A stretch of DNA of 32,000 nucleotides from Nostoc punctiforme PCC 73102 (GCF_000020025.1 NC_010628.1:600001-632000); one strand, 5' to 3'; positions 24,130-28,377 are shown, counted from the stretch's first letter. Notes: generated by a model from the sequence alone, not told the origin. A program made the numbers and translations.

Positions 24130-24283
24130 GCGTTCGATGCGAAAGTCGGGGTTTAGCTGACAGAATTCATAAAACTGATCTTCGGTTAGTGCGTAGGCGT
24201 AGCCCGTTGTAAACATCGCAGGTTTCAATTGCAAAACCATTGGTATAAACTCTCTCTGTGGCTACAGGTAAGTTGGTGGTCAT
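24130..24283 (-). pseudogene. relic of the N-terminal part of a Uma2-family nuclease gene (paralog of 28224-28377)
   Basis: The nucleotide alignment to 28271-28385 is readable by eye at roughly 85-90 percent identity. The translation is MTTNLPVATE...PMVLQLKPA[insert]LTEDQFYEFCQLNPDFRIER. It carries a 21-nt insertion and small indels. Confidence 0.7.
24193..24213 (-). repeat. 21-nt mini-insertion (SDR-like) splitting a HIP1 site
   Basis: The plus strand reads GTGCG[TAGGCGTAGCCCGTTGTAAAC]ATCGCAGG. The paralogous site at 28310-28317 is an intact GCGATCGC (TTAATGCGATCGCAGG). Confidence 0.8.
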
Positions 24284-24530
24284 AATTGCTTTGTGGCTAC
24301 TTCACCTGCTTTAACTATAATCTTTTCACAATCTACGGTTAAATCAGGCTTAACTCATGAAGATTAAAATTATTGCCACTGTAAAGAGGACAATGCTTAG
24401 GTGGACGGCAAGCTTCGAGTTTGAATTAAACGTAAGTAATCTCATTGACTGAACATATCATTGCAATCAACTTGCTTAATTCACCGCATCTCAGTACAGT
24501 AAAATCACAAGCAGTTTCAAGGTCATAAAA

Positions 24531-25277
24531 ATGACGACTGAAAAAAGGATTGCTGTGGTAACAGGCAGCAATCGAGGGCTAGGATATGCTATTTCCCGTC
24601 AATTATCCAAAATTGGCAACCGCGTAATTCTGACGAGTCGTAATGAAACAGATGGTCTTGCTGCTAAAGGTCAGCTTACCAATAAAGGGTTTGATGTTGA
24701 TTATCACACTCTGGATGTCACCAATGATGGAAGTGTGCAACAGTTTACCGAGTGGCTACGTGAAACTTACGGCAAAGTAGATATTCTGGTCAATAATGCA
24801 GGCGTAAATCCCACAACTAAGCCGGAAGAGTCCAGCTTACTGACTGTGCAACTGGAAACAATGCGATCGACCTTTGAAACTAATGTTCTAGCGGTACTCA
24901 GAATTTCTCAAGCCTTAATTCCGTTGATGAAGGTGCAAAATTACGGCCGCATTGTCAATATCTCAACGGAAATGGCATCTCTAACATCAGTTCCCACTGA
25001 CTACTACCCTTTAGCGCCATCCTATCGACTCTCGAAGGTGGGAGTAAATGGACTAACTGTGCTTCTCGCCAAGGAACTCCAGGGTACTAATATTCTCGTA
25101 AATGCTTATTCTCCAGGTTGGATGAAGACAGATATGGGGGGAGATGATGCGCCGTTCACGGCAGAAGAAGGAGCCGAAACTGCTGTCTATTTAGCAACGC
25201 TTCCCGATGGAGGAGCGCAAGGACTGTTTTTTGCAGAGATGCGAAAGTTTGGTGGCCCTATTCAAGTACAATGGTAG
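24531..25277 (+). CDS. short-chain dehydrogenase/reductase (SDR) family oxidoreductase, carbonyl-reductase-like (248 aa)
   Basis: It has the TGSNRGLG cofactor motif, NNAG, and the catalytic S...YxxxK (YRLSKVG). Confidence 0.9.
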   Translation: MTTEKRIAVVTGSNRGLGYAISRQLSKIGNRVILTSRNETDGLAAKGQLTNKGFDVDYHTLDVTNDGSVQQFTEWLRETYGKVDILVNNAGVNPTTKPEESSLLTVQLETMRSTFETNVLAVLRISQALIPLMKVQNYGRIVNISTEMASLTSVPTDYYPLAPSYRLSKVGVNGLTVLLAKELQGTNILVNAYSPGWMKTDMGGDDAPFTAEEGAETAVYLATLPDGGAQGLFFAEMRKFGGPIQVQW

Positions 25278-25283
25278 GTTAAT

Positions 25284-26201
25284 ATGGGAGATTCCGCAGG
25301 TTTACCGCCTATTTACGCTGATAAGCCGATTGAATTAGCACCTGCTAAAATTATTACCTCGTTCCCAGTCAATACTTTTTTAGAAAATCTAGCGAGCGCA
25401 CCAGATGGCACAATCTTTGTAACCAATCACGAAGTTGGCGAGATTGTTAGCATTACCCCAGATGGCAATCAGCAAATTCATGCGACTGTTGAAGGCAAAG
25501 TAAGTGGTCTTGCTTTCACTAGCAACGGCGATCTAGTAGCAACAGGCTGGAATGCTGATTCTATACCTGTGGTTTCTCTAGTTAAAAGTGATGGCACGGT
25601 GGAAACGTTGCTGACACTGCCAGACGCAATATTTCTCAATGGCATCACCCCACTTTCTGACACTCAGTATTTGACAGCAGATTCCTATCGTGGTGCAATC
25701 TGGCTGATTGATGTTGTTCAACCCAGTGGATCAATTTGGCTAGAACATCCAATGCTGGCTCGTAGCAATTCGGAGAGCGTGTTTCCGGCTGCAAATGGCT
25801 TGAAGCGTTTTGGTAATTTCCTCTACGTTTCAAATACGGAAAAAATGTTACTGTTGCGGATTCCCGTTGATAGCACTGATAAACCAGGTGAGCCGGAAAT
25901 TTTTGTTGAGCAAACTAATATTGATGACTTTGCCTTTGATGTAGAAGGCAACCTTTATGGAGCAACGCACATTTACAACAGTGTGGTACGAATTGCACCC
26001 GATCGCAGTACTACTATTATTGCTCAAGCCGAGCAAGGTGTAATTGGCAGCACAGCCGTGGCTTTTGGTCAAACTGAGGGCGATTGCACCGCGATTTATG
26101 TTGTAACTAATGGTGGAATGTTTTTACCTCCGCCCACGGGTGTCGTTCCTGCTAATGTTGTTCGGCTTGAGGTTGGAAAACCTGGATATCCCTTGGGTTG
26201 A
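25284..26201 (+). CDS. beta-propeller protein, SMP-30/gluconolactonase/LRE-like or strictosidine-synthase-like (305 aa)
   Basis: Repeated blade-like segments are present (...DGTIFVTN..., ...NGDLVATG..., ...YLTADS..GAIWLID, ...[14 protein letters not shown], ...[16 protein letters not shown], ...AIYVVTNG). It starts 7 nt after the SDR gene stop, suggesting co-transcription. The family assignment is tentative. Confidence 0.6.
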
Positions 26202-26210
26202 GAATGACCA

Positions 26211-26905: not shown

Positions 26906-26919
26906 CCATTTAAATTACT

Positions 26920-27278
26920 TTAACCAACAGCAAACTCGGTAAATTGTCGTTTAAAGGGTGAATGAAAAGCCAAAATGATGTCTTTTTTGGGTATACCTCG
27001 ACTAATAAGTTCATTGGCAATACCTCCTTCAGTACCATCGTGTTGAATCCAAAGTTTTTCGTTTTTAATATCTAGATGCAAAACACAACCATATACGCGA
27101 CGCTTATTTGACCACCCCGCATGAACAACTTGGTAGCGATGCCTACGGCGGGGCAAAGCCCAACGCGCTCTCTATCAAAAATAACTTCTGCTTCGACTTC
27201 TTCGTTGCTGGCTTTGATTTCACTGTAACCTAGCAACAGTTCTTGAATAAGTTGACGGTACTGTTCTACTTTTGCCAT
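26920..27278 (-). pseudogene. xisI: xisI-family gene frameshifted by a 23-nt insertion
   Basis: MAKVEQYRQLIQELLLGYSEIKASNEEVEAEVIFDRER | insertion | (D)RYQVVHAGWSNKRRVYGCVLHLDIKNEKLWIQHDGTEGGIANELISRGIPKKDIILAFHSPFKRQFTEFAVG*. Removing 27141-27163 gives a 111-aa XisI-length ORF. Confidence 0.85.
27141..27163 (+). repeat. 23-nt mini-insertion (SDR-like) splitting a HIP1 site inside xisI
   Basis: AGCGAT[GCCTACGGCGGGGCAAAGCCCAA]CGCGCTC. Excision recreates GCGATCGC and the reading FDRERDRYQVVH. Confidence 0.8.
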
Positions 27279-27704
27279 TTTACGTTCACGAAGTGTGCCG
27301 TAGGCATTCGTCTCCTCTTGTGGATCGAAAACAATCAACCCAACTTGGTAACGTTGGATTAATAAGCGTGGCAGTTCTAAGGTAAAAAAAGAACGATAGG
27401 TGTCTAAGGGAACTGCTAAAGATAGAAGTCTCTCAGGTTGTTCTTCTTCAAGTGCTAGTTGATATTTGAGATACTGTCCTAAAGCAGTACTAAATTCAGT
27501 TGTAGTAGATGGAGCAACAAAGCTTTTAACTTCAACCGCAATTTTTTCTTGATTTCGTTCAGCTGCTAAAACTTTCTCTGCACCAAGGCCGATGTACATA
27601 TCCAAACCGCCAAAACGGAGGAAAAGCGGGTCATTAGTGATGAGCCAACCCTCGTTCTCCAAAGCGCGTTTTACTGCATCATGGAATATGTCTTTTGCCG
27701 CCAT
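27266..27704 (-). pseudogene. xisH: xisH-family gene whose C-terminus is re-framed by a putative 25-nt insertion, giving a fusion to xisI as sequenced
   Basis: MAAKDIFHDAVKRALENEGWLITNDPLFLRFGGLDMYIGLGAEKVLAAERNQEKIAVEVKSF... is a typical XisH. As sequenced, the frame runs on into xisI (track ORF 27072-27704). Removing 27284-27308 gives ...VFDPQEETVKWQK* with a stop at 27266-27268, a 137-aa product and the usual overlap with the xisI ATG. Confidence 0.7.
27284..27308 (-). repeat. putative 25-nt mini-insertion near the xisH 3' end
   Basis: The minus strand reads AATGCCTACGGCACACTTCGTGAAC (encoding NAYGTLRE..). It shares GCCTACGGC with the 27141 insert. Its boundaries are inferred only from frame restoration. 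Confidence 0.45.
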
Positions 27705-27750
27705 AGATTCCTAAAATTTTGATTTCGTTCCTATAAAACTAGCTTGCTCT

Positions 27751-28377
27751 CTACCAAACCTGACTTAAATCTAAAACAAACCTAGGTAGCAACGGTTCAC
27801 CAAAAAGTGTCTTAGGATTATCCAATTGTTCAACCGCAATATTAGGGCGATAAATAAAAACTCGGCGCTGTTTTCTATCAATTAACCAACCAAGTTGCGT
27901 CCCATTATCAATATACTCTTGCATCTTCTCTTGCAAAATTCGTAAGTTATCAGTCTCAGAACGCAATTCAATCACAAACTCAGGACAAATCGGTGCGAAT
28001 TTTTTTCGCAGTTCTGATGGTATGGCTTCCCAGCGATCGCGTTTTATCCACGCCGCATCTGGCGATGTCTACGACGGGCTACGCCTACGCACTGCACCAT
28101 TCGGCAAAGTAAATCCACCACTGGAACCAAACCCTACCCCTGTACCATCTTGCTTTGTCCAAATACCCAACTGAACAATAATATCAAAGTTATGTCGATC
28201 GGTTTCAGAACCAGTAGGGGGCATAATCACTAACTCTCCCACAGCAGTACGTTCAATGCGAAAATCACGGTTTAGCTGACAAAACTCATAAAACTGATCG
28301 TCAGTTAATGCGATCGCAGGTTGCAATTGCAAGACCATTGGTATAATTTCTGTGGCTATAGGTAAGTTAATGGTCAT
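27751..28377 (-). pseudogene. Uma2-family (DUF820, PD-(D/E)xK-like) nuclease gene interrupted by an in-frame 21-nt insertion carrying a stop
   Basis: The track ORFs 28069-28377 and 27751-27975 are in the same frame. Together they read MTINLPIATE...LTDDQFYEFCQLNRDFRIERTAVGELVIMPPTGSETDRHN...TLPNGAVR[RRSPS*T]SPDAAWIKRDRWEAIPSELRKKFAPICPEFVIELRSETDNLRILQEKMQEYIDNGTQLGWLIDRKQRRVFIYRP.... Confidence 0.85.
28067..28087 (+). repeat. 21-nt mini-insertion (SDR-like) splitting a HIP1 site inside the Uma2 gene
   Basis: TGGCGAT[GTCTACGACGGGCTACGCCTA]CGCACTG. Excision recreates GCGATCGC and the reading PNGAVRSPDAAW. The insert matches the reverse complement of the 24193-24213 insert at 19/21 positions. 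Confidence 0.85.

Follow-up and report, generated by a model that had tools for sequence, protein, structure and literature searches.

Four short inserts, here called A, B, C, and E, were found in a window of 32,000 nt from Nostoc punctiforme PCC 73102 (GCF_000020025.1 NC_010628.1:600001-632000), i.e., the whole stretch of DNA that was analysed, with positions counted from its first letter. A and B are very probably small dispersed repeats (SDRs) of the SDR5 type, and C and E are close relatives; all of them lie in pre-existing copies of the octamer HIP1 (highly iterated palindrome 1), i.e., GCGATCGC, or, for E, in a near-HIP1 site. No octamer is more over-represented in cyanobacteria than HIP1, whose function has been debated for 30 years. 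The targeting of SDRs to HIP1 is correct, but it is already published for this very organism. Possibly new are the relatives of 18, 20, 23, and 27/28 nt at the same bond, the flank preferences, which appear to be family-specific, and a hot spot in the gene xisI, where filled alleles occur among empty ones across Nostoc species.

Inserts and their HIP1 targets

The inserts, with two intact HIP1 sites that serve for comparison, are as follows.

28067-28087, plus strand: insert A, 21-nt SDR5-type element, GTCTACGACGGGCTACGCCTA, between GCGAT (28062-28066) and CGC (28088-28090), within a Uma2 gene
24194-24214, minus strand: insert B, 21-nt SDR5-type element with two substitutions, GTTTACAACGGGCTACGCCTA, splitting a HIP1 in a Uma2 relic
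27141-27163, plus strand: insert C, 23 nt, GCCTACGGCGGGGCAAAGCCCAA, splitting the xisI HIP1 that encodes R-D-R
27285-27306, minus strand: insert E, 22-nt relative, TGCCTACGGCACACTTCGTGAA, in a near-HIP1 site at the 3' end of xisH, with an uncertainty of 1-2 nt in its boundaries
28310-28317: intact HIP1, GCGATCGC, the paralogous empty-site control for B, aligning base for base and filled by SDR5 in locus L091
28033-28040: intact HIP1 in Uma2, AGCGATCGCG, empty in all 10 alleles examined

Direct reading gave GGCGAT[GTCTACGACGGGCTACGCCTA]CGCACTG for A and AGCGAT[GCCTACGGCGGGGCAAAGCCCAA]CGCGCTC for C, at the positions and with the split HIP1 that an earlier reading of the window, here called the original prediction, had reported. 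For B, the minus strand reads GCGAT[GTTTACAACGGGCTACGCCTA]CGCACTA; the split HIP1 was as predicted, and the predicted coordinates, 24193-24213, were one base off. The paralogous control proposed for B, an intact GCGATCGC at 28310-28317, was also confirmed by base-for-base alignment with the B site. Insert E had been overlooked.

In A, B, and C, HIP1 is split at GCGAT^CGC, target bases are neither duplicated nor lost, and removal of the inserts gives an intact GCGATCGC. Read on the other strand, the bond lies between HIP1 nucleotides 3 and 4 (GCG^ATCGC) in these three inserts. A, B, C, and E have a conserved head in common, G[C/T]CTACG[A/G]CG (in E, GCCTACGGC), and their tails differ; C has the 12-nt head of A and B and a GGGC-AAA-GCCC mini-hairpin. 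The head always adjoins GCGAT and the tail CGC, i.e., the joints are GCGAT^head...tail^CGC. The predicted bond, fixed relative to the orientation of the element, was thus borne out in A, B, and C. Neither terminal inverted repeats nor a target-site duplication were present in A, B, C, or E. The cores of both insert types had 0 expected matches in 100 shuffles, which excludes chance for the cores. Intact HIP1 sites number 21 in the window, where 0.2 would be expected.

That the elements are mobile is shown by homologous sites, filled in some cases and empty in others, for each of A, B, C, and E. The original prediction had proposed a search for filled and empty orthologous sites, and empty ones were found for A, C, and E, with a paralogous empty site for B. 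The A site is empty, with an intact GTGCGATCGCC, in L050, L051, and L070, and L091 has the identical insert. The site homologous to B holds an insert in L091 and L051; other alleles are empty there. Empty alleles of C, reading GAACGCGATCGCTAC, were found in L125, L129/L140, L146-149, and L154-157; a close homologue, two metagenome contigs, and several syntenic Nostoc loci have the C site empty. Insert E is present in the window and in L050, and absent in L051, L058, L059, L070, L091, L129/L140, and L139, whose site reads GGCGAT(C/T)GTAAAATGG; of these eight orthologues without E, one has near-HIP1 GCGATCGT. In more than ten independent filled/empty pairs, the partner without the insert has an uninterrupted GCGATCGC. 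The empty sites carry an intact HIP1; therefore, the HIP1 halves are the target and not part of the repeat, and the claim that SDR-type mini-insertions entered pre-existing HIP1 sites stands.

Genes carrying the inserts

The genes and gene remnants concerned are the following.

27751-28377, minus strand: Uma2, putative restriction-endonuclease-like, intact save for insert A; the restored product of 201 aa matches PF05685 (E=4e-41)
26920-27278, minus strand: xisI, frameshifted by insert C; the restored product of 111 aa matches PF08869 (E=2e-47)
27307-27704, minus strand: xisH, C-terminus altered by insert E; the product without E matches PF08814 (E=8e-53)
24121-24283, minus strand: Uma2 N-terminal relic holding insert B, truncated and independently frameshifted

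As predicted, deletion of the inserts recreates HIP1 and restores Uma2, which then reads ...PNGAVRSPDAAW... in 201 aa, and XisI, which reads ...FDRERDRYQVVH... in 111 aa. The conserved residues encoded by the empty sites are R-D-R-Y in XisI and A-V-R-S-P in Uma2. In the AlphaFold 2 model of an intact homologue (P0001, 88% identical), the site of C is predicted to lie at a surface turn of the beta1-beta2 hairpin.

The original prediction held that each insert kills an open reading frame (ORF). This is right for A and C. Insert A is in frame (21 nt), yet it introduces a TAG stop (...GAVRRRSPS*) and truncates Uma2, and insert C (23 nt) shifts the frame of xisI. It is not right for B: the Uma2 fragment holding it was already truncated and separately frameshifted, and therefore B killed no live gene. 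Insert E deletes the stop codon of xisH and joins its frame to xisI, giving a fusion ORF of 210 aa at 27072-27704. In other Nostoc loci, xisH was broken by different lesions, i.e., a deletion, a stop codon, a 1-nt deletion, a foreign insertion, or complete absence (L050, L059, L070, L139, L127, and L057). Because the lesion differs by lineage, the module of xisH, xisI, and Uma2 is considered to be decaying independently in many Nostoc species.

The stretch 22700-26700 of the window holds the Uma2 relic with B, a short-chain dehydrogenase, an SGL-like gene, and an ORF of 188 aa, and it is missing from the otherwise syntenic L140, L058, and L008. Genes of other mobile elements lie upstream, i.e., a DDE_5 transposase (7923-9263) and a group II intron reverse transcriptase (RT)/maturase (14323-15567). 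Genes of the window are also represented in the sequencing run SRR12750581.

Relatives across Nostocales

One genome per species was scanned for the core of C, which gave 120 loci, about 85 of them Nostocales. Flank statistics were taken from 0.81 Mb of Nostocales DNA around these loci, a sample unselected for SDR5. A tabulation of flanks had been proposed in the original prediction; 15 of 23 SDR5-like copies in this sample have exact GCGAT...CGC flanks, and most of the others have one mismatch. The head motif G[CT]CT[AG]CG[AG]CG, in 30 unselected occurrences, is preceded by exact GCGAT in 20, by CGATC in 3, and by a one-mismatch form in 4. All 20 heads after an exact GCGAT are then followed by CGC after 18, 20, 21, or 23 nt. 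The elements form a superfamily with a conserved head beside GCGAT and a variable tail beside CGC.

An all-against-all indel census gave filled/empty pairs at the same bond for elements of 18 nt (GCCTACGGCGGTAAACTA), 20, 21, 23, and 27/28 nt (AAGCCTGACGGCATGGCGTGAGCTTAC). The 27/28-nt family AAGCCTGACGGCATGGCGTGAGCTTAC was found at GCGAT^CGC with empty partners in L099 vs L076 and L075 vs L092, and its start, GCCTGACGGC, is SDR-head-like. A nested case was also seen, in which a 24-nt GGGTGGTTCCTGAGCGCAGCCGAA lies within an SDR5 copy, between GTTTACGAC and GGGCTACGCCTA (L119 vs L073). In L059, a 21-nt filled/empty indel, TTCGCGTAGCGTCTCGCAGAG, lies outside HIP1; it is presumably a member of a further SDR family whose target differs.

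Among the relatives of C, the one that the scan gave most often is a 24-nt form, GCGAT[CGCCTACGGCGGGGC-N3-GCCCAT]CGC, with a variable loop (L003-L122). It was found in Nostoc, Anabaena, Scytonema, Tolypothrix, Rivularia, Nodularia, Fischerella, Cylindrospermum, and Aulosira. A repeat of ATCGC on either side leaves the boundary of this form ambiguous. In the scan for the core of C and the 24-nt form, for which SDR5 was not the query, the low-GC matches were all Nostocales except for two contigs of metagenome-assembled genomes (Leptolyngbyaceae and Acetobacteraceae), and the high-GC matches were without HIP1 flanks. The 23-mer core had 0 matches in the viral collection. In a metagenome pair with a GC content of 0.44-0.46, L126 vs L141, a 26-nt indel was found at GCGAT^CGCC beside an xisI of a different subfamily. 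If the host of this pair is not a member of Nostocales, HIP1-targeted mini-insertions would extend beyond their reported range.

The families appear to differ in flank preference. The 23-mer prefers TAGCGAT^CGCG, which makes up 1.6% of oriented HIP1 sites, and SDR5 prefers GCGAT^CGCA. The assignment of A and B to the SDR5 type was made by length, HIP1 target, and bond as these are described in later papers citing Elhai et al. 2008. Some points weigh against the assignment of the whole set. A and B have the SDR5 length of 21 nt, whereas C has 23 nt and E has 22 nt. The junction of E is one base off a clean GCGAT^CG insertion. The SDR5 flank preference, with A after CGC in 13 of 15 copies vs a background of 0.295, is an inflated statistic, as the 15 flanked copies include some orthologous duplicates.

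Hot spots in xisI and Uma2

At least three divergent xisI paralogues, i.e., the window group, L015, and L072, have the 23-mer at the R-D-R-Y codons. The copies in L015 and L072, which are identical to C and lie at its codon, are independent insertions. In the L015 orthogroup, the intact relatives fetched are without a perfect HIP1 at the position of the insert. Many intact XisI alleles of 111 aa were found in Nostoc genomes within a 90%-identity cluster, at syntenic loci whose ndhD-like gene, Uma2, xisH, and xisI are fully intact. In the enlarged xisI tree, filled and empty alleles are interspersed. When the insertion state was set against single-nucleotide polymorphisms (SNPs) at -10, -9, +8, and +12 nt from the junction, all four combinations occurred. 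Private substitutions are 13 synonymous and 10 nonsynonymous in filled alleles and 5 and 3 in empty alleles, and the two classes do not differ. The xisI site is therefore one of recurrent insertion, possibly with precise excision. A BLAST search of plasmids with the xisI region gave only distant xisI genes with 69-74% identity.

In Uma2, homologous HIP1 positions were also hit again in paralogues. The Uma2 orthologue of L091 (Nostoc sp. JL33) has three filled HIP1 sites, i.e., two SDR5 copies in opposite orientations and one 18-mer. Another genome carries a lineage-specific 23-nt variant of SDR5 at two sites. Some filled loci are decaying: L139 is without a start codon, truncation is seen in L057 and L074, and many lineages have a broken xisH.

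A JGI protein of 186 aa, P0287, has Uma2 (...AAWIKRDR) joined directly to XisI (DRYQLVN...) by a deletion between two R-D-R HIP1 sites. This deletion looks like HIP1-to-HIP1 recombination; the equivalents in the window are 28033-28040 and the xisI site at 27138/27164. P0287 also reads an SDR5 in frame, QPAMSTTGYAYALTDDQ (...AMSTTGYAYAL...).

These sites give a practical handle. The xisI R-D-R-Y site (TAGCGAT^CGCG) and the three Uma2 HIP1 sites are natural hot spots. Both filled and empty alleles exist in many sequenced Nostoc strains, and together with the common head motif they are usable for insertion/excision assays and for an enzyme search.

Published background

SDR1-8 of Nostoc punctiforme were reportedly described by Meeks et al. 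2001 and by Elhai et al. 2008, Genome Res 18:1484. Such repeats are reportedly confined to heterocystous cyanobacteria. The copies examined here lie in the N. punctiforme genome, where SDRs were defined. The original prediction considered that the HIP1 targeting might be unreported, and this part does not hold, as the targeting of SDR5 to HIP1 at the same bond is cited from Elhai et al. 2008. Xu et al. 2018 (PMC5861425), citing that work, place the SDR5 insertion between the third and fourth HIP1 nucleotide in Nostocaceae, and another later paper credits the same bond to Elhai et al. 2008. In a 2026 preprint citing Elhai et al. 2008, SDR5 is given as 21 nt. Because GCG^ATCGC is GCGAT^CGC on the other strand, the published bond is identical to the one originally observed in the window. 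A full-text literature search with the insert sequences and with SDR4/SDR6 gave no match. The insertion of SDRs is among the few processes known to act on HIP1 at a defined bond.

Possible mechanisms of insertion

The elements would be non-autonomous and moved in trans by a strand-specific reaction, in which a nick is made 3' of GCGAT and a short single-stranded copy is joined in. Such logic is suggested because the insertion is oriented and duplication-free and the joints are seamless, as for enzymes of the HUH/Y1 type (IS200/IS605, and the REP-RAYT system of repetitive extragenic palindromes and their associated tyrosine transposases). A staggered double-strand cut of the PvuI type would duplicate AT, and A and C show no such duplication. 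No enzyme was identified, and the nick-and-join mechanism is offered as a tentative possibility by analogy. Three results speak against it. The elements are too short for two end hairpins of the IS200 type. When folded as DNA, A, C, E, and the 27-mer did no better than shuffles (z +0.4 to -1.4), and the 24-nt form alone reached z = -2.0. No Y1/HUH transposase was found in the window.

A serious rival is templated copying at a break. A break in HIP1 would be repaired from another, filled HIP1, with the flanks as microhomology, i.e., a short-tract ectopic gene conversion, and the orientation and the 5+3 split would be inherited from the donor. This account is about as tentative as the nick-and-join mechanism, and it accounts for the family-specific flanks and for the spread among xisI paralogues. 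The extra flanks differ by family, i.e., CGCA(C) for SDR5 and TAGCGAT...CGCG for the 23-mer. Several xisI paralogues have the same 23-mer down to its loop, and the flank that they have in common is at most 13 nt (ATCGCTACCAACT). The Uma2 HIP1 at 28033, which has only AGCGATCGCG in common with the xisI site, is unfilled in 10 alleles. Many tails and lengths are found at the same bond, and the neighbouring mobile-element genes, i.e., the DDE transposase and the group II intron RT, are unrelated. However, SDR5 sites have unrelated flanks beyond 1-2 nt, which would leave a homology of only 5 + 4-5 nt. The conserved head with its varying tails is also left unexplained, and a HIP1-specific break, of which none was identified, would still be needed.

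It is rather doubtful, though worth weighing, that the insertion is a reversible switch, i.e., that precise insertion and excision at HIP1 turn genes off and on and so produce the patchwork in xisI and Uma2. The interspersion of filled and empty alleles, with all four SNP combinations within 12 nt on both sides, is consistent with such switching, and so are the empty alleles with a perfect GCGATCGC and an intact frame. Filled alleles have few secondary lesions, and their private substitutions, given above, have a low nonsynonymous share, against about 79% expected. Seamless, duplication-free joints are also what precise excision requires. Recurrent insertion alone, however, gives the same pattern. 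None of the alleles can be shown to be a revertant. Two SNPs that at first seemed to mark all filled alleles lost this status with more empty alleles, and several filled loci (L139, L057, L074, and xisH) are simply decaying.

A combined account, in which one reversible HIP1-directed activity nicks GCGAT^CGC and handles the 18-28-nt superfamily through the head GCCTACGGC, with family flanks tuning the choice of target, seems unlikely, more so than switching by itself. If it were true, the HIP1 sites in xisI and Uma2 would be points of seamless insertion and excision that switch genes off and on, and HIP1 would gain a molecular partner.

The interrupted xisI was also considered as a gene kept by selection. 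In this candidate, the insertion would be ancient, fixed, and under purifying selection, which would imply that the interrupted gene is functional, that a recoding hop over CGC-hairpin-CGC takes place, or that there is developmental excision. Its initial basis was a ratio of nonsynonymous to synonymous polymorphism (pN/pS) of 0.06-0.11, a protein search in which the best intact XisI match was only 88% identical, and two SNPs seemingly fixed between filled and empty alleles. It was rejected when the 90%-identity cluster of that match turned out to hold many intact Nostoc alleles, as filled and empty alleles are interspersed and have no fixed differences. That the interrupted xisI still functions, through a split protein started from a TTG inside the insert, a frameshift, or a ribosomal hop over the hairpin, is very improbable. 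Among ten xisI alleles recovered through the insert, both halves are open, with a pN/pS of 0.11 in the N-terminal half and 0.06 in the C-terminal half, and the variable sites by codon position, 8/1/23, show a third-position bias. All alleles that were recovered by way of the core pattern have an identical insert, and its site falls in a surface beta-hairpin turn in the P0001 model. Against this, fully intact alleles at this syntenic locus are numerous and are scattered among the filled ones, and therefore the selection signal is considered to be inherited from intact ancestors. Private substitutions are alike in filled and empty alleles. That the insert is identical is largely a product of the search pattern, and variants do exist (GCAGGC in L139 and MHRRRH in P0288). 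There is no slippery site, and a hop would remove D39, a nearly invariant residue.

The view that the GCGAT and CGC flanks belong to the repeat unit itself, or in a weaker variant match by chance, is hardly credible: the 24-nt form always has these flanks and gave no filled/empty pair in the indel census, but the more than ten pairs with an intact GCGATCGC, the empty sites encoding conserved residues of XisI and Uma2, and the 0 matches expected in shuffles stand against it, and for A, B, and C, where the original prediction had named it as an alternative, it is refuted by the empty sites.

Comparison with known systems

Miniature inverted-repeat transposable elements (MITEs), e.g., the cyanobacterial Nezha, are likewise non-autonomous, dispersed, and strain-polymorphic. 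MITEs are 70-300 bp long and have terminal inverted repeats and target-site duplications, which were not found in the elements of the window. The Rickettsia palindromic elements and intragenic REPs are also short and lie within coding genes, sometimes in frame, as SDR5 does in P0287. They differ in their greater length and in having no single palindromic octamer as their target.

The IS200/IS605 elements (IS608 and ISDra2) and REP-RAYT are alike in fixed orientation, absence of duplication, seamless joints, and insertion 3' of a short target, which is GCGAT here. The insertion targets are TTAC for IS608 and TTGAT for ISDra2. For the elements described here, oriented and duplication-free insertion 3' of GCGAT is reflected in the 20 of 30 unselected heads that follow an exact GCGAT. 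The elements differ from both systems in their length of 18-28 nt, in having no two end hairpins, and in their non-significant folds, and the likeness is one of logic only. REPs are 20-40 nt and have a GTAG tag (PMC3733652). The SDR head on the other strand is CGTAGGC or CGTAGAC, a resemblance to this tag only. The cyanobacterial repeats of Elhai et al. 2008 were listed as REP-like without conserved terminal motifs (Di Nocera et al. 2013).

The closest known system is SDR1-8 of N. punctiforme, above all SDR5. As originally stated, SDRs have no known mobilising enzyme, and the present elements are like SDR1-8 in this. C (23 nt), E (22 nt), and the 18-, 20-, and 27/28-nt forms have the same bond as SDR5 and differ from it in length. 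A and B agree with SDR5 in organism, in the length of 21 nt, and in HIP1 target and bond, and nested insertions occur here as well.

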